Shown here: positions 1 to 62,012 of the stretch, one piece after another
Layout of the letters: each line of letters opens with the position of its first letter
How positions within the stretch are numbered: the stretch's first letter is position 1
From: Pseudomonadota bacterium
GTDB taxonomy: Bacteria; Myxococcota_A; Polyangia; GCA-2747355
NCBI GenBank assembly: GCA_016711215.1
Contig: JADJTL010000001.1
Location: 1,144,067-1,208,066, forward strand
Reading direction: 5' to 3'
DNA: 64,000 nucleotides
Made by a program: the position numbers and the translations under genes
Notes under the pieces: generated by a model
What the model was told of the DNA's origin: nothing
The model's input: only the letters and a program-made list of their open reading frames with translations
The model's database searches: none

Positions 1-877
1 CGCGCGTACCAGATCGTCTCCTCGGGTAGATTGCCGTACCAGATCAGCATGAACTGCGAGAAGGCGATATAGGACCAGAAGACCGTGAAGCCGAAGAGCA
101 GCTTGCCGAGATCATGGTAGTGCTCGACGCTGATGACGTCGCCGAGCACCCCGGCGCTACGCAAGAGCAGCCCGACCAGCGCGAGAAAGGCGAAGATCGC
201 GACGACGCAGCCGGAGAAGTAGTAGACGCCGAACATCGTCGAGTACCAATGCGGATCGAGCGACATCAGCCAGTCGAAGGCCGCGAAGGTCACTGTAAGC
301 GCGAAGAGAATAATGGCCGGGCCGCTCAGTCGCTGCAGGCGCAGGGTCGCCTCTGGGGCACCGTCCTGATCCTGTCGCAGGGAGCGCCGATAGAAGGCCC
401 AGGCCAGGGCGGTCCAGATGCCGAAATAGCCCAGCGCGCGCGCCACGAAGAAGGGGATGTTGAGGTAGGGCGTCTTGCTCGCCAGCAGCGCATCGTGCCT
501 GAGCGCGTCGGGGTGGGTCCAATGAAAGAGCTCATGGAGACCGCCGACGACGGGTAGAAAGAGCAGGCCGAGCAGGGGCAGCGTGATCATCGCGTGCTCG
601 GCCAACCGCCGCACGACGACGCTCCAACCCGCCCTGGTGGCGAACTGCACGATGACGAAGAAGAGCGCACCGAGCGCGATGCTGAGCCAGTAGAGCAGCG
701 CCACGAGGTAGGAGAAGTGAGCCTGGCGTGCAGCGCCCGCGCCGCGACCAAGCAGCCAGTGGGCCATCAGCGCGAGCAACCCGACGCTAGCCGCCGCCAA
801 GGAGAGCGCGCGCCAGGTCTTGGAGCGGGGCAGGCGGAGCTGCTCAGGGCGCAGGGTCGAAGGGGCGGCGTGCGTCA
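1..877 (-). CDS. actF: Alternative complex III subunit ActF (NrfD-like membrane subunit); 3' end lies beyond the window
   Basis: Not in the ORF track because it runs off the window edge. My translation of the minus strand from a GTG overlapping the actE stop gives a polytopic membrane protein (HWYSTMFGVYYFSGCVV, FSQFMLIWYGNLPEE) typical of NrfD/PsrC-like ActC/ActF, positioned directly downstream of actE. Confidence 0.7.
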
Positions 878-1546
878 CGGCGTCCTCCAGCCGCGTCGCA
901 CGACGACGTCAGGCGGTAGCTGATCGAGGGTGGCGTGGCCGGCGAGCTGGAGCGCGCGGACATAGGCGGCGATGGCCCAGCGATCGGTGACCGGGATGGC
1001 CCAGGCGTAGGAGGGCATGCTGCGCACGCCCTCGCTGATGACGCCGAAGAAGTGACCGATCGGCGCCTGGAGCAGACGCTGCTCGTGGTAGGAGGGCGCG
1101 GGTACGGCCATCTTGCGCGCGCGCAAGATCGACTCCCCATTGCCACTCGCTCCATGACAGGGTTGGCAGTAGATGTCGAAGCGCTCGCGGCCGCGCTGTA
1201 ACAAGTCGGCGGTCAGCGCCACGGGCAGGCGATCGGCTGGCTTTCCGTCAAGGGTGCCGCGATAGAGATGCTCGCTCTCGCGCAGCGCGCCGTGGGCGAT
1301 GGTGTTGGCCGGTGGCGTGCGCATCGCCCGCCCGTCGGCGAAGAAGGCATTGCTCTGCTGGGCGCCAAAGCGCGCCTGTGAAGCCATGTTCTGCTGCAGA
1401 TGAACCGGCGGTGAGCTCGATCGCCCACCGCGACAGGCGGAGAGGCCGAGCAGCAGCAGCGCCGCGACCCGAGCCGCCGCAACGAAGCCGCGTGCGTGGC
1501 GCCATCGCCGCGCCAAGAGCCTTGCTGCTTGCCTCAGCACGCCCAT
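875..1546 (-). CDS. actE: Alternative complex III subunit ActE, monoheme cytochrome c
   Basis: ORF track 223 aa; single CxxCH (CQPCHG); N-terminal hydrophobic segment with lipobox-like LSAC; sits between actD and actF. Confidence 0.8.
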   Translation of the reverse strand: MGVLRQAARLLARRWRHARGFVAAARVAALLLLGLSACRGGRSSSPPVHLQQNMASQARFGAQQSNAFFADGRAMRTPPANTIAHGALRESEHLYRGTLDGKPADRLPVALTADLLQRGRERFDIYCQPCHGASGNGESILRARKMAVPAPSYHEQRLLQAPIGHFFGVISEGVRSMPSYAWAIPVTDRWAIAAYVRALQLAGHATLDQLPPDVVVRRGWRTP

Positions 1547-9095: not shown

Positions 9096-9337
9096 TGGCG
9101 GGCCCGGCGTGCGCCCCTGTGCCCGAGCCGCCAGCTCAGCGCGAAGGCCAATTGCGAGCCACGGGTATCTGGGGTTGAATGGCCCCGCTTTCGAACGAGC
9201 GATCTCGGGAGCTTGCGGTCTCATGTCCCCAGGTAGCGCTTCGCGATTACTGCAACCATCCGGAAGGACAATGGTCATGCCATGGCACGAGAGCTGCTTC
9301 TAATGCTTCTCGGCAGCGTTCCTAGGAGGGGCAAGCG

Positions 9338-10540
9338 ATGACGAATCAAGACGCTCGACCAGATGCTCGACCAGATGCTCGACCAGATGCTCCACGCGAC
9401 GGCCGAGGCGTTGGCGTGCAGGCGCTGAGAGCCAGGCGGTGGGTCGCAATGCTCGGCCTTTGCGCACTGCAACTTGGCTGCGCGGGCAGCGTCGACTCGG
9501 GTGCTGCGGGGGGCGATGCCCTGGGCACCGGTGGGTCGATCTACGACGTCACCAACACCGCCGGGGCCGTCGGGTCGACCGCCAGCGAGAGCGCTATTTC
9601 GAGCGGCACGAAGCTCTTCGTCATCGCCGACGGGGCACGGGTCAACGTGACGGTGGCCGGCAGCAGCACCCCGGTGATCTGGGGCAAGCTGTCGACGGGC
9701 GACGTGCTCGGCTTCGGCTATCTCGACAAGGCCTATCGCTATGAGCACGGCGGCACGGCCACGGAGCTGCTGCCCAGCGGTTCTGCGGGCGGGATGGTGA
9801 CGAGCTCGATGGTCGCGCCGGGCGCGGAGATCGGGCTGCCCAGCCTCAACCTCACGGGGACGACCCAACCCTACGTGCTGATCGTGCGGGGACCGGAGGC
9901 CAGCGGTGCCTACGGTTATATACTTTCGCCCTGCGGCGACGCTGCCTGCTCCAACGGCCCGACGGATGCCACCGTGCGGACCGCGGTGGCCAATCAACCG
10001 GTCAACGTCGGGGGTGATTACACGCTCGAGTTCCGCCCGGTCGAGCTGAACGGCGTTGCGAAGACGCTCTTCTCGCTGCGGAGGACGACGGCCGTCGCCA
10101 CCAGCGCGAGCACCAGCGCGAGCACCAGCGCGACCACCGCGGCGACCAGCAGCGTGGCCCCGGCCGCTCCCACCCCGCCACCCCCGCCGCCCACGGCCCC
10201 CACGGCCCCCACCGCGCCGGCAAAGGCCGCCGACGACGGCTGGTCGATGACCGATTGGCTGCTGCTCGGTGGCGCCGCGGTGGGCGGGTACGTCCTGTGG
10301 ATGAAGAAATGCGACTGGTTCGATATCGCCTGCAACGGCGCACAGACGAACGCTGCCGGCGGCGGTCCCAACTGGGGTGGTAATGATCCTAGCCTTCTGA
10401 ACGGGACGGTGGGAGGCAACACAGCCGCCTTTCCTTATGGCTATCAGTCCGCGACGGGAGCTGGCTGCTACGTCGATGCGAATGGACAGGTGCGGCTCAG
10501 ATCGACGCACCTTCTCGGCGACACTTGGAGCTGCTACTAG
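9338..10540 (+). CDS. Hypothetical membrane-anchored lipoprotein with N-terminal DARP repeats, Thr/Ser/Pro-rich linker, TM helix and Cys-containing C-terminal domain
   Basis: ORF track 400 aa; AGGAGG 7 nt upstream of the ATG; lipobox LQLGC; TSASTSASTSATT...PTPPPPPPTAPTAPTAP linker; hydrophobic WLLLGGAAVGGYVLWM; no recognisable catalytic motif. Confidence 0.6.
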   Translation: MTNQDARPDARPDARPDAPRDGRGVGVQALRARRWVAMLGLCALQLGCAGSVDSGAAGGDALGTGGSIYDVTNTAGAVGSTASESAISSGTKLFVIADGARVNVTVAGSSTPVIWGKLSTGDVLGFGYLDKAYRYEHGGTATELLPSGSAGGMVTSSMVAPGAEIGLPSLNLTGTTQPYVLIVRGPEASGAYGYILSPCGDAACSNGPTDATVRTAVANQPVNVGGDYTLEFRPVELNGVAKTLFSLRRTTAVATSASTSASTSATTAATSSVAPAAPTPPPPPPTAPTAPTAPAKAADDGWSMTDWLLLGGAAVGGYVLWMKKCDWFDIACNGAQTNAAGGGPNWGGNDPSLLNGTVGGNTAAFPYGYQSATGAGCYVDANGQVRLRSTHLLGDTWSCY

Positions 10541-24450: not shown

Positions 24451-25092
24451 CTAGGAACCGAAGGCAAAGCGCAAATAGCCCAGCGCCTGGAAATCCCAGC
24501 CGGCCGAGTTCAGGTCGGTCTCGGTCGGATCGTCGTCTGCCCCGCCGAAGAAGTAGTGGTAGCCGAGCTGCGGCGTCACGCCGAGCGAGAGGACGCGCCA
24601 GAAAGAATAGCGTAGACCGATCCCGCCGCGTCCCCCCACGCCGCGCGTATTGACGCGTTGGCTGTCGACCAGCTTGCCGTCGAAATCGTGCGTCTGGGCC
24701 TCGAGCGAGCCGAGATAGAAGGTGCCGACCAGGCGCATCACGACGCTGAGCCCGTGGCCGATATCGATCGAGCCATCACCGCCGAGGTTGAGCCCGATCA
24801 GATGCGCGTCGGCATCGCCGTCGAAGAAGCGCAGGTAGTCGAGATAGGCGCTGATGAAGAGCAGTCGCGCACCGACCTCGAAGCCTCCGGCCGGGCCTCC
24901 GGCCCAGCGGTAGAAGTCGCGGCCGGTCTTCCCATTGCCAGTGGCGGCGCCGACGAGGCCCGAGCCCCAGAACTCGAGCACGCGCGCCCCCGCGACGCTG
25001 GGTGCGATCAAGAGCATGCCCGCGAGGAGCGCGGCGCAGGCCGTCCGCGAGCGGCGATCGAGGCAAGCAGTGCTGCACGGGCGGTGTTTCAT
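24451..25092 (-). CDS. Putative outer-membrane beta-barrel protein
   Basis: ORF track 213 aa; signal peptide; alternating hydrophobic/aromatic pattern with Gly-rich turns; assignment by pattern only. Confidence 0.4.
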   Translation of the reverse strand: MKHRPCSTACLDRRSRTACAALLAGMLLIAPSVAGARVLEFWGSGLVGAATGNGKTGRDFYRWAGGPAGGFEVGARLLFISAYLDYLRFFDGDADAHLIGLNLGGDGSIDIGHGLSVVMRLVGTFYLGSLEAQTHDFDGKLVDSQRVNTRGVGGRGGIGLRYSFWRVLSLGVTPQLGYHYFFGGADDDPTETDLNSAGWDFQALGYLRFAFGS

Positions 25093-25859: not shown

Positions 25860-27086
25860 TCAGCGCACCTGCCGTAGCAGCGCCAGCAGGCGGCTGGGAT
25901 CGAGTCCCTCGCCGCCGCGCGCCGCCTCGTGGCCGTCGCTGCCGAGCAGGACGAGCTGCGGCAGCTCGTGGGCGCGGTACTTGGCTTGCAGCGCGCGGTC
26001 GAGGGCGGTGTCGCGTGAGACGTCGACCTTCAGCAGCACGAAGCGGCTGAGCGCGCGTCGCACGGCCGGATGCGTGAGTACGCGGCTCTCCAGCAGCCGG
26101 CAGGGGCGACACCACGAGGCCGAGAAGTCGATCAATATCGGTCGCCGGCGGCGCGTGGCCTGCGTCAGCGCGGCGCTCTCGTCGTGCAACCAGGGCAGCT
26201 TGACGGGTGGTGTCAGCACGAAGTTCAAGAGGCCCAGCAGCGCCAGACTCGCCAGCAGGATGCCGGTGGTCTTGCGCACCACGCGCCAGAGCGGCGCCGC
26301 GCGGAACTCGCGCTGGAGCTGGGCCAGGAGCAGGCCGCCCAGAGCGAGGGCTGCGTTGAAGGCGGCGAAGTGCCACGCGCTCGAGGTGTAGCGCGCCAGC
26401 GGGGTGACGAGGTCCTGCAGGTAGTAGAGCGCCGTCGTGACCAGGGCCACGCCGAAGATCCCGCTGACGAAACGCATCCAGGGGCCGGCCTTCGGGAGAC
26501 TGACGGCGAAGGTCGCGAGCAACCAGAAGAGCACGCCGATGCCGCTGGCATAGCTGAAGAGCAGACTGGCGCCGAGGGCGACGTTGCGGGTGCTGGCGAC
26601 GTAGGCCAGCAGGCCAGCGAGCACCGGGCCGGTGCAGGGCGCGATGATCACACCGCCGACCAACCCCATGGCGAAGGCGCCACGCTTGCCCCGTCCTCCG
26701 ACCAACGCCATGCGACTCGTCAGCCAGTGCGGCAGGTGGATCTCCCAGAGGCCAAACATCGACGCGGCGAGCGCCAGCAGCAGCGCGCAGAGCGGCAGCA
26801 CCACCCAGGGCGACGCCAGCAGACTGCCGGCCGCCCAGCCGCCGAGGGCAGCCAGCACGCCCATGGTCGTATACATCGCCGCGATGCCCATCACGTAGCA
26901 GGTGGCCAACCAGAAGGCCGCCCGGCGCGTCGGCGCGCGGCGCGCGCCAAAGATGCTGACGGTGATCGGTATCATCGGGTAGACGCAGGGCGTCAGGCTC
27001 GTCGCCACGCCGGCGCCGAAGACGCTGAGCAGCGCCCAGCCGGTGCCCCGCGCCAGGGCTTCTTCGAAGGAACCCATCGGCGCTAC
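25860..27086 (-). CDS. DsbD-like thiol:disulfide interchange protein (CcdA-type membrane domain + C-terminal thioredoxin domain)
   Basis: TPCVYPMIP and APCTGP Cys motifs in the membrane domain; C-terminal WCRPC; internal Met (MGSFEEAL) used as start because the tracked N-terminus is Arg/Ala-rich and overlaps the upstream gene. Confidence 0.75.
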   Translation of the reverse strand, partial: VAPMGSFEEALARGTGWALLSVFGAGVATSLTPCVYPMIPITVSIFGARRAPTRRAAFWLATCYVMGIAAMYTTMGVLAALGGWAAGSLLASPWVVLPLCALLLALAASMFGLWEIHLPHWLTSRMALVGGRGKRGAFAMGLVGGVIIAPCTGPVLAGLLAYVASTRNVALGASLLFSYASGIGVLFWLLATFAVSLPKAGPWMRFVSGIFGVALVTTALYYLQDLVTPLARYTSSAWHFAAFNAALALGGLLLAQLQREFRAAPLWRVVRKTTGILLASLALLGLLNFVLTPPVKLPWLHDESAALTQATRRRRPILIDFSASWCRPCRLLESRVLTHPAVRRALSRFVLLKVDVSRDTALDRALQAKYRAHELPQLVLLGSDGHEAARGGEGLDPSRLLALLRQVR

Positions 27087-28996
27087 TCGCTCGCGCCGGC
27101 CAGGCGGTAGACGGCGACCTGCTTCGGCGCCAGCGCCAGGCGTGTCTGGCCCGCGTGCAGCGCCGGCGCGCCGATGGTCAGCGCGCCGCCGCCGGGGCTG
27201 TCGATCAGCGGCGCGCGCGCCTCCCAGCTCCGATTGAGCACCCACAGCAGGGGAGCTCCGTCCGTGGTTTCCACCTCGCGCAGCTGTACCAACGGGTCGC
27301 TGGAGCGCAGCGTCGGCTGGAGCCCCGCGGCGGCCGCCAGCAGGCCGTAGAGCGCTTCGCTCTGGTCCCGCGCGTTGATGTCGGACTGCTCGGCCAGGTA
27401 GTACTCGAGCGGACAGTGCAGCAGCAGCATTTGGCCTGCGCCGTGGCGCTTTCGCGTCAGCGCCGGCCGACCCCGCTGGTCGTGGGCGAGCACCACCGTG
27501 CCATGGCCGGAGAGCGGCTCGATCGGCAACACGGCCCGCGGATAGGGCCGCGCGCCGACCTTGGTCGCGAGCGCCAGCGCGAGGCCGTCGCCGCGCAGCA
27601 GGAGCTCGTCGTCGGGCAGGTCGAAGCAGCCATAGCGCAGCGCATGGCGACAGCCCGTCAGCTCCTCGAAGTTGCTGCACCAGGCGCCCTGATGGAAATT
27701 GTAGTCGCCGCCGAAGTACGACCAGTAAACCGTGGCGCCAGCGCGCGCCGCTTGGAGCAGGGCGCTCCAGGTCGGACTGAGCAGCTTCTGCGTCGCCGGG
27801 GCGAGCAGTAGCTGGTAGCTCCGGTTGGCCAGCGCCGCTTCGGGCACGAGCTCGACCTCGAAGCCGGCCTTCACGCAGAGCACATAGGCCTGCAGCAGCG
27901 TCCGCCGCATGCGGTCGCGCTCTTCCCAGCTGAAGGGGTAGGTGGTGTTGAAGTAGGAGGGCACGATGATCGCGGCCCGCGGGGTCGGCGGGATCAACGT
28001 CGCGGCGTCCACGGCGCGCAAGAGCGCTGCGACTGCGCGGAGCTCGTCACAGGCGGGCTTTTCGCTGCCGTCGGCGCGCGTGATGCCGAAGGTCAGCTCG
28101 AAGGCGTGGTGGTCGTAGGGCGTCTCGTCGGCAAGGTCGAAGTCGCTGTAGCACCAGCCCAGCGCGCCCGCCGCGCCGACGGAAAGACAGCTATGCACCA
28201 CCTCGCGGTAATAGAGGGCCTGCTCCTGCTCGCCGGCCTGATTGGAGGAGCAGCCGAACTCCTCGAAGAGCACGGGCAGCCCGAGATAGCGCAACGAGCG
28301 CACGCAGAATTCGACATTGAGCGCCTGGCGCAGCGGGTCGCTGTCGCCGTAGTAGCTGTGGGGTCCGACGAAATCGAGCGTCCCGCGCAGGGCGTCGACG
28401 TCGAAGCCATTCTGCCCGCCCTTGAGGTTCATCACGCCGTCGCCGAGGCTGAAGGGCCGCGCCGGATCCGCGCTGCGCAGCGCCCGACGCAGCGTCTCGG
28501 CCCAGGCCACGATCGTCTCCGGGCTGCTCTTGCCGCCCCAGAGCGGCATCTCGTTGCTCGCCAGGTAGGCGGCCACCGCCGGGTGGCCGGCGCCCGCCGT
28601 GCCCAGCGCCCGCATCAGCGCCACCTGCCACTCGATCACCTCGCTGGCGCTGTAGGGAGAGCGCCCGTGTTGCCCGGGGAAGTCGAAGTTCTGACCCGAC
28701 ATGTGCCCCACGAGGGCCGAGGGAATCGTGTGCAGCCCGCTGGCCTGGCAGATATCGAAGAACTGACGCAGGCGCTCGATGGGGGCCTGGGCCAGCACCC
28801 CGGGCTGCGGCATGAAGCTCGGAATGAAGGCGAAGCTGCGGCAAACATTGAGCCCGATCGCTCGCATCTGATCGGTCTCGGCGCGCACGCGCTCGGCGTC
28901 GAAGCGCTCCCACATCCGCGGCCCGCCGGCCCGTGACCAGTAGTTGACGCCAAGCAAGAAGGCCGGTCGGCCGTCGAGCGTGAGCAAATGGGACAT
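27083..28996 (-). CDS. Glycoside hydrolase, GH5-like (beta/alpha)8 domain with ~300-aa C-terminal extension; no obvious signal peptide
   Basis: LLGVNYW, acid/base-like ASNEMP, nucleophile-like VLFEEFG; start at internal Met MSHLLTLDG. Confidence 0.6.
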   Translation of the reverse strand: MSHLLTLDGRPAFLLGVNYWSRAGGPRMWERFDAERVRAETDQMRAIGLNVCRSFAFIPSFMPQPGVLAQAPIERLRQFFDICQASGLHTIPSALVGHMSGQNFDFPGQHGRSPYSASEVIEWQVALMRALGTAGAGHPAVAAYLASNEMPLWGGKSSPETIVAWAETLRRALRSADPARPFSLGDGVMNLKGGQNGFDVDALRGTLDFVGPHSYYGDSDPLRQALNVEFCVRSLRYLGLPVLFEEFGCSSNQAGEQEQALYYREVVHSCLSVGAAGALGWCYSDFDLADETPYDHHAFELTFGITRADGSEKPACDELRAVAALLRAVDAATLIPPTPRAAIIVPSYFNTTYPFSWEERDRMRRTLLQAYVLCVKAGFEVELVPEAALANRSYQLLLAPATQKLLSPTWSALLQAARAGATVYWSYFGGDYNFHQGAWCSNFEELTGCRHALRYGCFDLPDDELLLRGDGLALALATKVGARPYPRAVLPIEPLSGHGTVVLAHDQRGRPALTRKRHGAGQMLLLHCPLEYYLAEQSDINARDQSEALYGLLAAAAGLQPTLRSSDPLVQLREVETTDGAPLLWVLNRSWEARAPLIDSPGGGALTIGAPALHAGQTRLALAPKQVAVYRLAGASE

Positions 28997-29055
28997 AGCG
29001 TCGGCTCCATCAGCGCTGCTAGCGCGACAGCGGCGCGCTCGGGCGCCGAAGGGGT

Positions 29056-30459
29056 TCAAGGCATCGCCACCGAGGGCCCGCAGGGTGGGCGTTGGTCCTG
29101 GCGACAGAAGGGCAGCGTGCGGCAGACCGCGCTGCTCGCCGCGGCGGCGGTGCAACGTAGCATCATGCGGCTCGCCGGGTAGTCGAGATCAGTCTCGAAA
29201 AAGGACAGCCACTCGCCGCCCAGCACGATGTCGAGATCGGGAACGCGAGGCCGCAGCTCCTGGCGCAGACCCTGGAGCAGCGGCGAGCGATCGTCGACGA
29301 TCGCGAAGGCGATCGGGGCGCCGACCCAGGCCACCGCCGCGCCTCGTTCGTCGCGATCCTGCGCCGCATCGAGCGCAAAGCGGTCGAGACGCAGCAGGCG
29401 CCAGCGCCGCGCGAGCTCGCCGCAGGGGCCAAAGTTACGCCGCGGGTCGTCGAGCGTGCGGGTCATGTCGGCCACCAGGGCGGCACGCGGAATCGACACC
29501 AGCGAGACGATCTCGCTGCCGGTTGGCAGATAGAGCGTGTGCCCGGGCGCTTCCTGCAGCTCGGGATGGCGCGCCTGGAGCTGCTCGAAGGCCGAGCGAG
29601 CGATCAGCGGAGTGCCCACCCCCGAGGCCACGATCGCCACCGCGTCGAGACCGCTGGCCGCGGTCGGTGGTGCGGCGTCACCGGTGGGATCGTAGTCGTC
29701 GGGCAGCAGGCAGAGCGGCGCGATCACGCGGCGGCCGGGGAGCACCGTGCTCTCGCCGGCGATCGAGGCGCGCCCGCCGCCGCGCAGCCCGCCGGCGAAG
29801 ACGGCCGCGCAGCGCTCACTGCGCAGGCCGTCGGCGGTGACAAGGCGCGTGACGTCGCAATCGGCTGCCAGCTGGTCGTTGCTGCCCGCCAACTCGGAGC
29901 GCAACGTCAGCGCGCGGGGCGCGGCCGTGGCGCTGCCTCCGTCTGCTACCCCCAGGTAGTTGAGCGTGACGGCGAAATGCGCGAGGACGTCGACGCCGAG
30001 CAGCAGGTCGACGGCCAGCGGCGCATCAAGACCAATCGGACCGGCGCTGGCCTCGAGCAGCTCGAGGTCGTGAAAGACGAAGCGCGTGACGGTTGGACGC
30101 AGCGCATCGAGCAGGCGCAGCGCCACGCGCCGGCGACGACTGCGGAAACCCTCGCTCTGCCTGAGTAAGGTCAGCGACGCGGCGTTGTCGACGACCGCGC
30201 GCAGCGGGGGACCGTCGTCGACGCGCACCCGCGCGACGAGCACGCCCTGTTCGAGGGTGGCCGGAATCGGCTCGCCAAGAAAGCCCTCGTAGCGCAGCTC
30301 ACCGCAGCCGCCGAGGCCCAGCGCGAGCAGCACTGCGCATGCTGCGCATGCCGCGCATGCTGCGCACGCTGCGGAGCGTCGCCCTGGTCGGCCAGCGCCT
30401 TGAGGCGCTCTAGGCCGGGTCCTTGAGCTTGCTCCGCAGCTTCTCGACGAGTGCGCCAT
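29056..30459 (-). CDS. Hypothetical lipoprotein (start uncertain)
   Basis: Lipobox-like LLALGLGGC; N-terminal region encoded by a 9-bp GCATGC-type repeat; the tracked N-terminus overlaps the MlaC-like gene; no known catalytic motif. Confidence 0.45.
   Translation of the reverse strand: MAHSSRSCGASSRTRPRAPQGAGRPGRRSAACAACAACAACAVLLALGLGGCGELRYEGFLGEPIPATLEQGVLVARVRVDDGPPLRAVVDNAASLTLLRQSEGFRSRRRRVALRLLDALRPTVTRFVFHDLELLEASAGPIGLDAPLAVDLLLGVDVLAHFAVTLNYLGVADGGSATAAPRALTLRSELAGSNDQLAADCDVTRLVTADGLRSERCAAVFAGGLRGGGRASIAGESTVLPGRRVIAPLCLLPDDYDPTGDAAPPTAASGLDAVAIVASGVGTPLIARSAFEQLQARHPELQEAPGHTLYLPTGSEIVSLVSIPRAALVADMTRTLDDPRRNFGPCGELARRWRLLRLDRFALDAAQDRDERGAAVAWVGAPIAFAIVDDRSPLLQGLRQELRPRVPDLDIVLGGEWLSFFETDLDYPASRMMLRCTAAAASSAVCRTLPFCRQDQRPPCGPSVAMP
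30335..30375. repeat. Tandem 9-bp repeat (ATGCGCAGC-type, about 4 copies) at the 5' end of the lipoprotein gene
   Basis: Direct reading: gcgcatgctgcgcatgccgcgcatgctgcgcacgctgcgg; encodes AACAACAACAACA in one frame and MRSMRGMRSMRS in another. Confidence 0.8.
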
Positions 30460-31027
30460 ACGACTGCCGCTGGATGATGCGGTTGAACTGCGAGCGGTAG
30501 TTGCGGACCACGCTGACGTCGTCGGTGATGACATCGTAGACCATCCAGCCATCGGTGCCTTGGCGCATCTTGTACTGGATCTGCAGCGCTTCGCTACGCC
30601 CCTTGCGCTTGACGTCGATCGCCGTGGTGATCGCGGCCTTGTCGCCGACGATCTCCTCTCCGAGGTAGCGGACGGCGTAGTTCAGATTCGAGCGCAGCTG
30701 CTTGAGGTAGTTGCGTTCGATCAGCTGGCGCAGCAGCTCGCTGAACTCCTGACGCTCGGCGTTGGTGCGCTTCTCCCAGTGTCGGCCGAGGGCCAGCCGC
30801 GCGAGCTCGGGGAAATCGAGGAACTGCGCGACGACGCGAGTCAGCTCGCGATCGATCGGCTTGGGGGCGCGGCCGCGCGTCTGTTTGCGCAGCAGCATCG
30901 CGATCTGGTCGTTGGTGCGCCTTACCTTGATCAGCGGCCCGTCGGTGCGCGCGGCCGCCGCGTGCCCCGTGACGCCGATCAACGAGAGCGCTGCCAGCAA
31001 GATCAGCGGATGCCGGGCGTGGCGCAT
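30410..31027 (-). CDS. MlaC/Ttg2D-family periplasmic lipid-binding protein
   Basis: Signal peptide LILLAALSLIGVTGHA; overall MlaC-like pattern (FDFPELARLALGRHW, YLKQLRSNL, GWMVYDVITDDVS). Confidence 0.65.
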   Translation of the reverse strand: MRHARHPLILLAALSLIGVTGHAAAARTDGPLIKVRRTNDQIAMLLRKQTRGRAPKPIDRELTRVVAQFLDFPELARLALGRHWEKRTNAERQEFSELLRQLIERNYLKQLRSNLNYAVRYLGEEIVGDKAAITTAIDVKRKGRSEALQIQYKMRQGTDGWMVYDVITDDVSVVRNYRSQFNRIIQRQSYGALVEKLRSKLKDPA

Positions 31028-35291: not shown

Positions 35292-35368
35292 CGCACGACA
35301 GGTCGGCGCCTCGACCGACGGTCGGCGCCGTGGCATGGTGTGAGCTGACGCGGCAGGAAGTAGCTCGG

Positions 35369-35854
35369 ATGAGTGCCTCGGTCCAGACCATCCACGACTT
35401 CTTCGAGCGCTACGGCTGGCAGTGTGACTTCGACGGTGCGACCGCGACCTGGGTCACGGGCTTTCGCGGCAAGACCGCGAACTTCAACATCATGGTCCAC
35501 CTGACGGAGAACTGGCTCTACTTCATCGTCAGCCCCTTCGCGAACGCGCCGCAGACCGTCGTTTGCGAACAGCGCCTCAGTCAGTATCTGCTGCGTCTCA
35601 ATCACACGATCAACCTGGCGAAGTTCAGCGTCGACGGCGAGGGCGACGTCGTGCTCACGGTGGAAATACCAACCGAGGGCCTGACCTATAGTCAGTTCCG
35701 CGATGGGCTCAACGCCGTCAGCTACTACGCTGACTGCCACTACCTCGATGTGATCAACCTGGCGCAAAGCGCGAGCTATGTGCCGGCGCCGGTCGCCGAC
35801 GAGAAGTGGTGGGCGAGCGAGGTCGAGGCCTTCGAGCTAGAGAAGCCCAACTGA
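35369..35854 (+). CDS. YbjN-domain protein (putative sensory-transduction regulator / chaperone-like)
   Basis: ORF track; YbjN-like pattern (ANFNIMVHLTENWLYFIVSPF). Confidence 0.5.
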   Translation: MSASVQTIHDFFERYGWQCDFDGATATWVTGFRGKTANFNIMVHLTENWLYFIVSPFANAPQTVVCEQRLSQYLLRLNHTINLAKFSVDGEGDVVLTVEIPTEGLTYSQFRDGLNAVSYYADCHYLDVINLAQSASYVPAPVADEKWWASEVEAFELEKPN

Positions 35855-57432: not shown

Positions 57433-58719
57433 ATGGCCACGGCACGCTGCCTCTGCGCCGAGCTCGGTCCCGAGCGCCTGGCCCAGGGGGAGGCCTTCGT
57501 CTGTGGGCGCGTGTTGGGCGTCGATCCTGCGCGGCGTGAGCTGATCGTCGTCGACCGCTCAGGTCGGGCCTGCGTCGCCTTACCGGAGCCCTTGCCGCTG
57601 CCGAGCCCGGGGGACATCGCGCGCCTCGAGCTGGGCCCCGCGTGGCCGGCCTGCGCCGCCGCTCTTCAGGTGCTGACGCCCTATCGTCGCGCCGAGCCCT
57701 TTCCCTCGCCCGGCGCGGATTACTATCGGCTGAACGCGGGCACCAGCAGCCGCGCGGAGCGGCTTCGCTTGCGCGCGCGTTTGTTGGCCGCCGTGCGCGG
57801 GTTCTTCGACGCAAGGGGCTTCGTCGAGATTCAGAGCCCGCAGCGCGTCGCCTGTCCGGGGCTAGAGCCGCAGCTCCTGGCCGAGCCGGCGGGGGAGGGG
57901 TTCTTGATCACCTCCCCCGAGTATCAGCTCAAGCGCCTGTTGGTCGCCGGTTTCGAGCAAATCTACTTTCTCGGCGGCTGCTGGCGCGCCGACGAACGCG
58001 GACCGCTGCACCTCAATGAGCTCTGCATGCTCGAGTGGTACCAGGCCTACGATGAGCTCGAGGCGCTGCTGCTGCTGACCGAGGCGCTGCTGCGCGCGGT
58101 GGCGCAGCAGGTCCTCGGCACGCTGCGACTGCGCTGGGGCGGTATGGAGGTCGATCTCGGACAGCCCTTCCGCCGCCTGAGCGTCACGCAGGCGCTGCGC
58201 GAGCTCGCCGGGCTGCAGCTCCGCGGGCCGCTCGACGATCCGCGGATGCTGCGTGAGGCCGCGCTGGCGGCGGGTATCGGCCCCTTCGCTGCCGACGCCG
58301 ACTACGACGAGGTCTTCTCGCGCATCGTCCTCGAGCGCATCGAGCCAGCCCTGGCGACGATGGGCGCCGTCTTCTTCACCGACTTCCCGGCCCCGCTCGC
58401 CGCGCTGGCCCGCCGCCACCCGCGCGATGCAGCGCTGGCGCGACGCTCTGAGCTCTATGTGGCGGGCGTCGAGCTGGCCAACGCCTTCGAGGAGCTCACC
58501 GATCCAGACGAGCAGCTCGCCCGACTCCGTGCTGATCAGGCGCTGCGCGCGCGCCGTGGGCTGCCCATCTACCCGATCGATCAACGCTTCATCGAGGCGC
58601 TGCGCGAAGGCATGCCACCGAGCAGCGGTATCGCCCTCGGCGTCGACCGCCTACTGCTGCTGCTGAGCGGCGCGAGCCACATCGACGAGACGGTGGCCTT
58701 CGCCACCCCTGAGCTTTGA
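57433..58719 (+). CDS. epmA: EF-P lysine aminoacylase EpmA (GenX/PoxA, lysyl-tRNA-synthetase-like) with N-terminal extension
   Basis: Class II aaRS-like core (FVEIQSP, ELCMLEWYQAY, GIALGVDRLLLLL); directly downstream of efp. Confidence 0.75.
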   Translation: MATARCLCAELGPERLAQGEAFVCGRVLGVDPARRELIVVDRSGRACVALPEPLPLPSPGDIARLELGPAWPACAAALQVLTPYRRAEPFPSPGADYYRLNAGTSSRAERLRLRARLLAAVRGFFDARGFVEIQSPQRVACPGLEPQLLAEPAGEGFLITSPEYQLKRLLVAGFEQIYFLGGCWRADERGPLHLNELCMLEWYQAYDELEALLLLTEALLRAVAQQVLGTLRLRWGGMEVDLGQPFRRLSVTQALRELAGLQLRGPLDDPRMLREAALAAGIGPFAADADYDEVFSRIVLERIEPALATMGAVFFTDFPAPLAALARRHPRDAALARRSELYVAGVELANAFEELTDPDEQLARLRADQALRARRGLPIYPIDQRFIEALREGMPPSSGIALGVDRLLLLLSGASHIDETVAFATPEL

Positions 58720-58789
58720 GGGCGCTGACCGAGGCGTCTTCGCTCCGGATCGCCTGCGGCAGCGAAGGGCCAAGCCGTTGGCGGCGCGG

Positions 58790-58835
58790 ATGTTGCATTG
58801 CGATTGCAAGATGTTGCAATTATTCTCTCGGATGG
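58790..58835 (+). promoter_or_regulatory. AT-richer segment with repeated/palindromic TTGCA(A) motifs upstream of the hypothetical gene
   Basis: ttgcattgcgattgcaagatgttgcaattattc seen in sequence; markedly lower GC than surroundings. Confidence 0.25.
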
Positions 58836-58882
58836 TGGCCCAGGGCAGAATCCCCTCTCGTTTTCAGCGAGCAGCGTCGGCG

Positions 58883-60304
58883 ATGCAAGCGACAACAAGA
58901 GCGACCGGGCAAACGACAGGGCGGCGAAGACTGCTGGCGGCGCTGGTCGCAGCGCTCGTTGCACCCCAGTTGCCATCGCTTGGCGCCAACCGCGGGCCGC
59001 AGGGGCGGGCCTGGATCAGGCTGGCCGCGGCTCGGCCTCAACCCAGGGCGCGCCGCCTCTCCGCCGCGGCGTGGGCGATCGCGGAGCACGCGCCACAGAC
59101 CTTGGCACGGGCCAGATGGGCTTATGGCGTGGTCTGGATGGGAGATATCACGCCGGTGCAGCTCATGGCGCACGCGCTGCTGGAGAATGCCTACGCGACT
59201 GCGTCGACCGCTCCTGCGGCGGCCAAGCTCTATCCCTACGAGACCTTCCTGGCGTGGCGCCTTCGCGACCTCAGCCTGGTGGAAATCCTGCAAGTGCGGC
59301 GCGCGGTGAAGGCCGGGGCGAGGCAGTGGGCCGAAGCGGCAAGGATTCGGGGACCCAGAGCGAAGCCGGAGGGCAGGAGTGATCGGGGCAGCGAGGTGGA
59401 TGCGGTGGTCCGGACCCGTCGGCTGGCGCTGGAACTGACGCGTAGGGCGTGGCACGACGCGGCGAGCATGGAGCGCTTGCTGCGCGCATCGCTGCCGCCA
59501 CAGACCCTTCGAGCGCATGACGAGCCGTTGGCCGCGTCGCTCGCGACCGCCGCGGACTTGCGCCCTGGGGGAGCGAGGGTTGGGCTCCTCGGGGCGCTCG
59601 CCTGGAAGGTCGATACAGCCCGAAGATCGCTTATCCCCCCCGCGCTGCGTCCGAGGGAAATCGAGCGGTGGGTCGAGGCGCTGCATGGCGACCTGAAGCT
59701 GCGCGTTGGATTGGGCGACGGTTCAGCGGGCCCGGTCAGAGTGCTGGTCGGATCACTGAGCGAGGTGTCGTGCCCGACGCCTAATGTGAACGGCTCATAC
59801 GCCTTCACCACCGGCGAGGCGGAGACGATGCACCGATCGGCTGAGCGCCGGCGGCAGCTCGCTGAGGTTATGGTGGATACCTTGCTGCACGGGAGGTGTC
59901 CTCGCGAAGTTCTGCCCCGCGCGCGGGACGCGATAGTTCGTCTTGCTGGGCACTTTGAGAGGGATCTCAAGGAGGCTTTCCCGGGCGAGGGCGGCGCCCC
60001 TGACCTCACTGACGGCCAACCCGGCGTCGAAGCGCGCCTGCGCCGCGTCGAAGCGCGCCTGAGCACAGCCGTGCAGGCGCTGCCCGCTGACTTGCACGAG
60101 CTCCTCCGTCCTCTGGGCGAAGTGGCGACCGAAAGCGCTGGATCAGCAAATGGCGAGGCTTCGCCTGGGGAAGGGTGCTGGTCGCGGCTGGATCGCCATT
60201 GGACCGCCCTCGAGGCGCTGGTCGAGGCCCAGGATGACCTCGAGGCTTGGGCTGAGGTCGCCGCTGCCCTTGAACCGGAGCGACCCCGCCGCGTTCGCGA
60301 GTGA
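58883..60304 (+). CDS. Hypothetical secreted protein (possible Tat/Sec signal), atypical codon usage
   Basis: ORF track 508 aa with probable internal start MQATTRATGQTTGRRRLLAALVAALVAP; many A/T-ending codons (aca, aga, caa, gat, aat, gaa, ata, gtt, ctt, tca) unlike neighbouring genes; no recognisable domain. Confidence 0.5.
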   Translation: MQATTRATGQTTGRRRLLAALVAALVAPQLPSLGANRGPQGRAWIRLAAARPQPRARRLSAAAWAIAEHAPQTLARARWAYGVVWMGDITPVQLMAHALLENAYATASTAPAAAKLYPYETFLAWRLRDLSLVEILQVRRAVKAGARQWAEAARIRGPRAKPEGRSDRGSEVDAVVRTRRLALELTRRAWHDAASMERLLRASLPPQTLRAHDEPLAASLATAADLRPGGARVGLLGALAWKVDTARRSLIPPALRPREIERWVEALHGDLKLRVGLGDGSAGPVRVLVGSLSEVSCPTPNVNGSYAFTTGEAETMHRSAERRRQLAEVMVDTLLHGRCPREVLPRARDAIVRLAGHFERDLKEAFPGEGGAPDLTDGQPGVEARLRRVEARLSTAVQALPADLHELLRPLGEVATESAGSANGEASPGEGCWSRLDRHWTALEALVEAQDDLEAWAEVAAALEPERPRRVRE

Positions 60305-60383
60305 GCGGCCCGCGTTAGCCGCAGTCGGCGCGGGGCGCCCGCCCCCGACGGGGTCGACCAGATCAGTCGCGGGTGCGACCGGA

Positions 60384-62012
<1,629 letters not shown>

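Follow-up and report, generated by a model that had tools for sequence, protein, structure and literature searches.

Lineage-restricted orphan (ORFan) genes of GC-rich bacteria belong to no detectable family, have a narrow range, show a weaker codon bias than neighbouring housekeeping genes, evolve fast and are frequently lost. The ORFans constitute a class of observation and not a homologous family, and a comparison with them does not provide a function. The gene studied here, gene X, shares all of these features. It lies in a 64-kb stretch of DNA that we analysed as a whole (hereafter, the window), and an original prediction made from these letters had described it as a hypothetical secreted protein of atypical composition, possibly acquired by recent horizontal transfer.

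RESULTS

Reading frame, start codon and product of gene X

The maximal open reading frame (58778-60304) comprises 508 codons from a TTG. Translation most likely starts at the ATG at 58883, which would give a protein of 473 amino acids up to the stop codon at 60304, in agreement with the ∼470 residues originally announced. This start is favoured by an in-frame TGA found immediately 5' of the orthologous ATG in the homologue of the related lineage L003, by the alignment of the homologues, which begins at the signal peptide, and by the independent gene call of the near-identical protein P0005 (474 amino acids), which opens with MQATT. The TTG at 58778 was rejected as a start, since the promoter patch lies 3' of it and, in L003, the ATG is preceded by a stop. 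The NCBI call (P0001, MBK8480460.1, 382 amino acids) is N-terminally too short, and correcting this annotation from 382 to 473 residues gives back the signal peptide. The features of the locus are listed in Table 1.

Judged from its sequence, gene X is a genuine protein-coding gene. Its frame is kept without frameshifts across 390-470 codons in three lineages, and the conservation within the family falls in motif blocks. We rejected the idea that it is the antisense shadow of another gene, because no overlapping open reading frame scores better and dN/dS is <1 in the frame of gene X.

Table 1. Features of the gene X locus (positions are those of the window)
Feature	Position	Strand	Description
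epmA (EF-P lysine aminoacylase GenX)	57433..58719	+	428 aa; Pfam tRNA-synt_2 2.4e-43; NCBI name; GC3 0.86
Candidate sigma-54 -24/-12 element	58782..58797	+	CGGCGCG-GATG-TTGCA; GG and GC cores intact, spacing correct
AT-rich patch, probable promoter/operator of gene X	58789..58835	+	Three TTGCA, two of them TTGCAA; direct repeat GATGTTGCA
Conserved 15-nt leader motif	58857..58871	+	CTCGTTTTCRGCGAG; ends 11 nt 5' of the start codon
Gene X	58883..60304	+	473-aa orphan protein; NCBI MBK8480460.1 / IPL40_04705; pI ∼10; Ala/Arg/Leu-rich; predicted all-alpha
Signal-peptide-like N-terminus (aa 1-35)	58883..58987	+	Basic n-region ending RRR; 11-residue hydrophobic core; SLGA before the likely cleavage site
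Conserved N-terminal helical domain of X (aa 36-210)	58988..59512	+	Motifs AxALLEN, LYPYxxFLxWRL, VRRxxKxxARxWAE
21-bp tandem duplication within gene X	60015..60056	+	Yields ...VEARLRR-VEARL...; L001 homologue without 7 residues here
21-bp tandem duplication in the X-fumarase spacer	60349..60390	.	Copies the fumarase stop-codon region; single copy in L001
Class I fumarate hydratase	60384..62012	-	Convergent with gene X; Pfam Fumerase and Fumerase_C; GC3 0.94

Family, fold and distribution

The earlier statement that X has no recognisable domain is borne out by searches for families and folds. The maximal open reading frame, run against the profiles of Pfam, NCBIfam, PADLOC and PHROGs, returned nothing credible; the best family match (NF041863) scored 16.5 bits, where the cut-off is 40, and falls in the untranslated upstream part of the frame. 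When all four family members were compared with Pfam, and a two-sequence profile with the PDB sequences, no usable match emerged. The full-length AF2 model of X is poor (pLDDT 53), so the description of X as an all-helical binding protein is weakly grounded, and a Foldseek search with this model against the PDB yielded noise only.

The family consists of five sequence clusters in ∼15 billion proteins. When 1.84 billion representatives were searched exhaustively with HMMER, P0001, P0003 and P0004 were the only matches, and word-indexed searches found only P0002 besides P0001 and P0003. A four-sequence profile gave no further members, and no homologue was found in GTDB species-representative genomes, JGI metagenomes, IMG/VR, plasmids and phages. 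A secreted protein encoded 3' of epmA in L009 was considered as a homologue and rejected (hhalign probability 0.1%). Relatives with an EpmA ∼54% identical carry different genes downstream. By the distribution of its homologues, X is confined to one narrow group of uncultured bacteria; the closest relatives of this group that bear a name are Kofleriaceae/Deltaproteobacteria MAGs (Myxococcota-like).

A variable slot between epmA and fumarase

Syntenic homologues are present in three other lineages; they share only 40-60% identity with the window copy and among themselves. Full-length copies occupy the same position in L001, where gene X is followed by the fumarase gene (short contig), and in L003, where it is followed by a hipA-like gene (short contig; one flank known). 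In L004/L008, the order is epmA, a truncated gene X and the hipA-like gene. In L002 and L007, the hipA-like gene directly follows epmA, with a gap of 16 nt in L007, and no remnant of gene X was found. A truncated copy in one related lineage and a deletion in another indicate that gene X is dispensable. The original prediction had named the presence of conserved orthologues here in every relative as an observation that would speak against it: orthologues do exist in some of them (L001 and L003) but not in all, as gene X is absent from L002 and L007 and truncated in L004/L008.

Among the close relatives, the slot contains gene X, a hipA/yjjJ-like kinase gene, both or neither. The window and L001 have gene X without the hipA-like gene, L002 and L007 have the hipA-like gene without gene X, and where the two co-occur their orientation is convergent. 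Since all four combinations of presence and absence occur, we rejected a functional link between them.

At the borders of the slot, we found no integrase, transposase, tRNA or flanking insertion repeats, and gene X stands alone between epmA and the fumarase gene. Rfam detects just three tRNAs in the window (at 17.8, 24.3 and 48.5 kb), and the only repeats at the slot are the 21-bp tandem slippage duplications. Closer homologues in unrelated taxa or mobile elements were not found, all those detected being syntenic and of the same clade.

Codon usage and evolutionary rate

The original prediction pointed to many A/T-ending codons and to a composition that departs from that of the neighbouring genes, and proposed a GC3 and codon-adaptation comparison. 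We ran it against the 42 other genes of the window, and gene X turned out to have the weakest codon bias of the 43. Both its GC3 (0.759 versus 0.866 ± 0.037, z -2.9) and its CAI-like index (0.488 versus 0.701 ± 0.063, z -3.4) are the lowest of the set, and 24% of its codons end in A or T, compared with 13% in the other genes, in which every contiguous stretch of 473 codons has a GC3 of at least 0.81. The overall GC content is not atypical (0.694 versus a background of 0.691 ± 0.032, z 0.1), and the GC1/2/3 values of 0.75/0.57/0.76 give a flattened codon-position profile.

GC3 lies between 0.74 and 0.81 in all homologues and between 0.86 and 0.96 in the flanking genes. As all homologues share it, the low GC3 is a long-standing trait of the family and not the mark of an un-ameliorated import. 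We propose that the excess of A/T-ending codons is caused by weak codon-usage selection in a gene that evolves fast and is probably expressed weakly or conditionally, and not by a foreign origin. Gene X is a worked example of how, in a GC-rich genome, a low GC3 can flag a native fast-evolving orphan gene instead of foreign DNA.

The dN/dS of gene X is 0.74 (against L001), 0.56 (against L003) and 0.59 (against L004/L008), compared with 0.15-0.23 for the flanking genes. With values this high, a large part of the protein may evolve near-neutrally. The difference between pS and pN against L003 amounts to ∼5 standard errors. Between the window and L008, dN is 0.135 and dS 0.59 for epmA, and dN is 0.585 and dS 1.0 for gene X, which corresponds to a non-synonymous rate ∼4 times that of epmA in the same pair of genomes.

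The upstream region

A less GC-rich region with TTGCA(A) repeats had been noticed upstream of gene X, and both observations are correct. With 41% GC, positions 58790-58835 are the single most AT-rich 46-mer of the window (mean 70% GC, sd 6.8%), and the three TTGCA copies at 58793, 58804 and 58814 form its sole cluster of three within 40 bp. The 9-nt direct repeat GATGTTGCA occurs twice, 21 bp apart, where 0.29 occurrences are expected.

Scanning 58500-60500 for sigma-70 promoters and intrinsic terminators gave no candidate, and the AT-rich patch has no match to the sigma-70 consensus. The element at 58782-58797 has two mismatches to the sigma-54 consensus TGGCACG-N4-TTGCW. Matches with at most two mismatches are at chance level across the window (11 observed versus 9.9 expected), which is why we treat this element as a candidate. 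The aligned site in L004/L008 reads GCGCACG-GTTT-TTGCT, with CG in place of the GG core. Neither an enhancer-binding protein nor an upstream activator site was identified. Taken together, a sigma-54 promoter could tentatively be assigned to gene X, at somewhat less than even confidence. As a separate observation, sigma-54 activator proteins are encoded on two contigs of more distant relatives.

Further downstream, the leader motif CTCGTTTTCRGCGAG is the same in the window and in L004, L005, L006 and L008 except at the R position. The L003 contig starts within the motif, and its last 13 nt are present. The spacing between CTCGTTTTCRGCGAG and the ATG is constant in all of them, despite coding sequences that are only ∼40% identical. 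Folding of the leader RNA gave a stability no greater than that of shuffled sequences.

The N-terminus

The signal-like N-terminus with an RRR motif of the original prediction is confirmed by hydropathy. In MQATTRATGQTTGRRR-LLAALVAALVA-PQLPSLGA, the hydropathy maximum falls at residues 17-27, and this core (mean Kyte-Doolittle value 2.96) is the sole strongly hydrophobic segment of the protein. The same n-h-c layout is seen in L003 (MRTMTRRRIAVALVAALVASEVLSPVEA) and in L004/L008 (MRAKRWRRTVVGLAVALTMPQVLGLG); by inspection and hydropathy, the tripartite organization is thus present in three lineages, with SLGA, VEA and GLG c-regions, and the RR before the hydrophobic core is conserved in the homologues, all three N-termini having RR-x-hydrophobic-hydrophobic. 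The Tat signal models PF10518 (Pfam) and TIGR01409 (NCBIfam) did not match at E<=1, although HMMER filters often drop such short-motif HMMs. As the first 80 residues have no cysteine, and hence no lipobox L-[AS]-[GA]-C, X is not a lipoprotein. On these features, we consider it fairly likely that X is exported; alternatively, the hydrophobic segment could anchor X in the membrane instead of acting as a cleaved signal.

DISCUSSION

We conclude that X is probably a real, native, clade-restricted, dispensable and fast-evolving gene with an export-type N-terminus. It would have been inherited in place within the small slot, of variable content, that separates epmA from the fumarase gene. Its transcription would start in the AT-rich TTGCA patch, most likely at the sigma-54-type element, and its translation at the ATG downstream of the conserved leader motif. 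Export across the inner membrane would rely on the RR-containing signal peptide and on Sec or Tat, with a cleavage near SLGA/N, and the mature protein (∼438 amino acids, basic and predicted all-helical) might serve in the periplasm or envelope for binding or as a scaffold, with no enzymatic activity. We consider such a non-enzymatic role in the envelope less likely than not.

The recent horizontal acquisition suggested by the original prediction is not supported. That gene X came from a donor with a lower GC3 and has not yet been ameliorated would account for its bottom rank in GC3 and CAI-like index among the 43 genes; gene X is also missing from L002, the closest species-representative genome, and from L007, and relatives carry another accessory gene, the hipA/yjjJ-like kinase gene, in the slot. 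However, the overall GC content is identical to the background, neither mobility genes nor a tRNA nor flanking insertion repeats lie at the slot, and no homologue was found in plasmids, phages, IMG/VR and metagenomes. Three other lineages have homologues in the corresponding position, 40-60% identical and with an equally low GC3; being syntenic and deeply diverged, these largely refute a recent import and leave it very improbable. The weak codon bias and the high dN/dS (0.56-0.74) would also be explained if gene X were in decay, a nearly or wholly functionless frame under relaxed constraint and heading for loss. The truncated copies in L004/L008, the clean deletion in L002/L007, the flattened GC1/2/3 profile and the in-frame 21-bp slippage duplications are in line with this reading. 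Yet full-length frames persist in three lineages at a dS of ∼1, which is unlikely for 470 neutral codons even at 70% GC, dN/dS is significantly <1, and the motif blocks, the signal peptide and the strongly conserved 15-nt leader have all been kept; we therefore regard decay as unlikely.

Diversifying selection on an exported X could maintain divergent and null alleles against an external antagonist (such as a phage, the toxin of a competitor or a partner in kin recognition), with homologous recombination in the conserved flanks exchanging these alleles. Between L003 and L004, the hipA-like gene differs by ∼4% (95.7% nucleotide identity, dS 0.07), and the X proteins are ∼41-43% identical (dS ∼0.9), with a break exactly at the gene boundary. 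Presence, truncation and absence are all seen among close relatives, X carries an export signal, and we infer that a low GC3 would suit divergent alleles between which recombination and biased gene conversion are reduced. However, no whole-gene comparison among the four sequences has a dN/dS >1, the Logan contigs are short and possibly chimeric, and with a single known L003 flank and mobile hipA-like toxin genes the break may reflect a recent hipA transfer and not old alleles of gene X, so that we hold diversifying selection to be rather improbable. It is a quite remote prospect that X founds an undescribed family of exported helical proteins, kept as deeply divergent recombining alleles and null alleles at a fixed chromosomal slot of an uncultured Myxococcota-like clade. 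X would then be a hypervariable determinant of the envelope, affecting, for instance, phage susceptibility, the interaction with toxins or the discrimination of kin, and its low GC3 would arise as a side effect of recombination being suppressed between the alleles. A different question is whether the TTGCA cluster is a transcription-factor operator, such as the ∼10.5-bp-phased direct repeats of an OmpR/PhoB-type response regulator, instead of containing a sigma-54 -12 element. The spacings of 11 and 10 bp place the three copies on the same helix face, and GATGTTGCA is repeated exactly, but the aligned region of L004/L008 carries just one TTGC(T/A), the extra copies lie in a window-specific stretch of ∼23 bp without counterpart in L004, and an adjacent regulator gene is absent, making an operator decidedly unlikely.

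The practical value of the finding is limited. If gene X were under diversifying selection, which is no more than a possibility, it would become a candidate determinant of the envelope or of recognition in a wastewater lineage about which little is known. For a native, clade-restricted gene, as we prefer to read it, the comparison with described systems is as follows. Globin-like non-haem sensor helical bundles (the RsbR N-terminal domain, PDB 3zta, and pXO2-61, PDB 3pmc) count among the described systems closest to X. The upstream element resembles sigma-54 promoters in its GG and GC cores in a 12-nt register and in the TTGCA as -12, but deviates from them by its two mismatches and by a match count not above chance in the window. 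As in Tat and Sec signal peptides, an RR-x-hydrophobic-hydrophobic motif precedes an 11-residue core and small residues stand at a plausible cleavage site, whereas Tat signals typically have a less hydrophobic core and the Tat HMMs are unmatched. Finally, compared with the ORFan genes that it otherwise resembles, gene X is unusually long (473 amino acids) and carries both a conserved export signal and a conserved leader motif.

Identity and predicted export of gene X

The ORF between epmA and the fumarase gene (gene X) is identical to the NCBI entry MBK8480460.1 (locus IPL40_04705), annotated as a hypothetical protein. Its length agrees with that originally predicted, the likely ATG start giving 473 amino acids, whereas the NCBI start gives 382. 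Several results place the start at this ATG: distant homologues can be aligned from the hydrophobic N-terminal segment on; in L003, a contig of a relative, an in-frame TGA lies directly 5' of the orthologous ATG; the codon at the GTG used by NCBI reads GCG in the related locus L001; and on a Logan contig of nearly the same sequence, a gene call made independently comprises 474 amino acids and begins with MQATT. The deposited annotation thus begins 91 residues late and thereby loses the signal peptide.

A signal-peptide layout is present in three lineages that are elsewhere ∼40% identical, namely MQATTRATGQTTGRRR-LLAALVAALVA-PQLPSLGA in the window, MRTMTRRR-IAVALVAALVA-SEVLSPVEA in L003 and MRAKRWRR-TVVGLAVALTM-PQVLGLG in L004/L008. 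This hydrophobic segment is the sole strongly hydrophobic stretch of the protein, and the N-terminus has no lipobox cysteine. An RR-x-hydrophobic-hydrophobic motif occurs in all three N-termini but Tat HMMs gave no match to X, which is why both routes are named here: judging from these N-termini, the protein is probably exported via Sec or Tat.

Profiles of protein families, defence systems, phages and PDB sequences all failed to match X; the absence of a recognisable domain was thus confirmed, and the proposal of an undescribed function stands. In an initial search of ∼5.8 billion clusters, the sole match besides the NCBI entry was P0002, a protein 58% identical to X. When 1.84 billion representatives were scanned exhaustively with HMMER, two more homologues came up: P0003, at ∼39% identity, and P0004, which is truncated. 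A profile built from these four sequences found no further members, and relatives were absent from the GTDB species-representative genomes, JGI metagenomes, IMG/VR, plasmids and phages searched. At least six other ORFs of the window also have no Pfam match, the sizeable ones (Table) with good coding statistics; this genome is rich in hypothetical proteins, and the lack of a match does not set X apart.

Composition and evolutionary rate

Atypical codon usage had been proposed for X, and comparison within a set of 43 likely genes assembled from the window bears this out. X ranks last for GC3 (0.759 versus 0.866 ± 0.037, z -2.9), for the CAI-like index (0.488 versus 0.701 ± 0.063, z -3.4) and for coding log-odds per codon (0.027), and 24% of its codons end in A/T versus 13%. 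No contiguous 473-codon stretch in the other genes falls under a GC3 of 0.81. The overall GC content of X is ordinary (0.694 versus 0.691), the difference lying in a flattened GC1/GC2/GC3 profile (0.75/0.57/0.76).

X is under weak purifying selection. Its dN/dS is 0.74 between the window and L001 (dN 0.29, dS 0.39), 0.56 against L003 (0.59, 1.05) and 0.59 against the L008 lineage (0.585, ∼1.0); pS minus pN against L003 amounts to about five standard errors. The corresponding values are 0.23 for epmA against the L008 lineage (dN 0.135, dS 0.59) and 0.15 for fumarase against L002 (0.037, 0.24).

Gene content around X

The window (70% GC) reads as a housekeeping chromosomal stretch. It carries genes for alternative complex III, DAHP synthase, multihaem cytochromes, AspRS, an RlmL-type methyltransferase, RecD2, YchF, TsaE, DUF924, EpmA and class I fumarase, together with efp (called from its own sequence and the efp-epmA pair in relatives) and, at the right-hand end, a uvrA-like ORF recognized from its translated sequence only. 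As listed, the efp ORF probably includes 11 codons too many, the proteins of relatives being 187 amino acids long. The nearest named relatives of EpmA (45–59% identity) are from Kofleriaceae and 'Deltaproteobacteria' MAGs, so the host probably belongs to a deep-branching, Myxococcota-like lineage. EpmA has 428 residues, with the class II synthetase core confined to residues 104–424; the N-terminal extension of ∼100 amino acids is also found in relatives of 402–463 amino acids, whereas E. coli-type EpmA, of roughly 325 amino acids, is without it.

In the window, epmA is followed by X and the convergent fumarase gene. L001 has X facing fumarase, and L003 has X facing a hipA/yjjJ-like kinase gene. 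In L004/5/6/8, epmA is followed by a truncated X of ∼200 homologous codons that then reads through antisense into the hipA-like gene. In L002 (a GTDB representative, EpmA 81%) and L007 of the same species, the order is efp, epmA, hipA-like gene and fumarase, the last two in reverse orientation; X is absent, and tblastn detected no remnant in this lineage. Relatives at ∼54% EpmA identity keep the efp-epmA pair, followed by unrelated genes. X is thus specific to the clade and lies in a small slot of variable content. L009 encodes a secreted protein downstream of epmA, which was rejected as a homologue of X.

The hipA-like gene (452 amino acids), missing from the window, occupies the same slot in relatives. 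The L007 product has a recorded HipA_C domain, and a putative N-terminal helix-turn-helix would make the kinase YjjJ-like. Loci with both X and the kinase gene, with either one alone and with neither are all represented, so the two do not form a functional pair. In L002, a long-read MAG, a region upstream of the hipA-like gene is AT-rich, and ∼100 nt of CT-rich low-complexity filler between epmA and the hipA-like gene removes both stop codons; this is probably an assembly artefact, because in L007, a near-identical contig from another assembly, the spacer is clean and only 16 nt long.

Coordinates of gene X, its surroundings and related features
Feature	Locus	Position	Strand	Remark
efp ORF as listed	window	from 56722		TTG start
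epmA	window	57433-58719	+	
X, maximal ORF	window	58778-60304	+	
X, likely start	window	58883	+	ATG
X, NCBI start	window	59156	+	GTG
Fumarase gene	window	60384-62012	-	
Candidate sigma-54 element	window	58782-58797		CGGCGCG-GATG-TTGCA
AT-rich patch	window	58790-58835		41% GC
TTGCA repeats	window	58793, 58804, 58814		
Leader motif	window	58857-58871		CTCGTTTTCRGCGAG
Leader motif	L004	255-269		
Leader motif	L003	1-13		last 13 nt
21-bp-period duplication	window	58789/58810		in candidate promoter patch
21-bp-period duplication	window	60015-60056		in-frame inside X; absent in L001
21-bp-period duplication	window	60349-60390		copies fumarase stop-codon region; single-copy in L001
Sigma-54-like site	window	9283-9298	+	TGGCACGAGAGCTGCT
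Pfam-less ORF	window	3-878		
Pfam-less ORF	window	9338-10540		400 aa
Pfam-less ORF	window	24451-25092		
Pfam-less ORF	window	27083-29155		
Pfam-less ORF	window	29056-30681		
Pfam-less ORF	window	35330-35854		
hipA-like gene	L002	11400-12751	-	
hipA-like gene	L003	1409-1987	-	
hipA-like gene	L004	916-2064	-	
hipA-like gene	L007	2171-3529	-	
CT-rich filler	L002	11300-11400		

Upstream region

The AT-rich patch upstream of X, noted in the original prediction, has the highest AT content of any 46-mer in the 64 kb, and its TTGCA repeats form the sole cluster of three within 40 bp. X is probably driven by its own putative promoter. No sigma-70 consensus was found in the patch by promoter scan. A candidate sigma-54 element matches the consensus TGGCACG-N4-TTGCW, its two core dinucleotides being correctly spaced; at the aligned position, L004/L008 have GCGCACG-GTTT-TTGCT. 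The two further TTGCA copies lie inside a ∼23-bp stretch seen, in the alignment, in the window alone. Matches of the quality of the candidate element are at chance frequency in the window (11 versus 9.9 expected), so the element is no more than a lead. GATGTTGCA is present twice in the patch, 21 bp apart (0.29 expected). Alternatively, the patch may be an operator of phased direct repeats. Three separate tandem duplications of 21-bp period occur in and around X. The best sigma-54-like site of the window, with one mismatch to the -24/-12 consensus, lies elsewhere, ∼40 nt upstream of a Pfam-less ORF.

In the window and in L004/5/6/8, exactly 11 nt separate a 15-nt leader motif from the ATG that follows it; the L003 contig begins inside the motif and has the remainder at the same spacing. 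Conservation of the motif greatly exceeds that of the coding sequence, which is ∼40% identical across lineages. Folding of its possible 6-bp hairpin was no more stable than that of shuffled sequence.

Origin of gene X

Recent horizontal acquisition, the interpretation originally placed on the atypical composition, is unlikely given the native overall GC content, the shared low GC3 and the absence of mobility genes or insertion scars around X and of homologues outside the clade in the databases searched. All X homologues are low in GC3 (0.74–0.81, flanks 0.86–0.96) despite dS values of ∼1, which makes this an ancient feature of the family. Such a pattern is consistent with a gene that evolves fast and experiences little selection on codon usage, and whose expression would probably be low or conditional.

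One observation deserves further attention: contigs that are close elsewhere diverge abruptly at the edge of X. The hipA-like genes of L003 and L004 are 95.7% identical (dS 0.07), whereas their X copies share ∼41–43% protein identity (dS ∼0.9), the break sitting exactly at the gene boundary in a comparison where L003 is known on one flank only. Old, divergent X alleles could have been swapped by recombination; the break could equally mean that the hipA-like gene, which is prone to mobility, has spread recently.

Taken together, we favour, with moderate confidence, a native, clade-restricted, dispensable and fast-evolving gene with an export-type N-terminus, the product being probably exported and predicted to be helical. 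Orphan genes such as X are common in uncultured GC-rich lineages.
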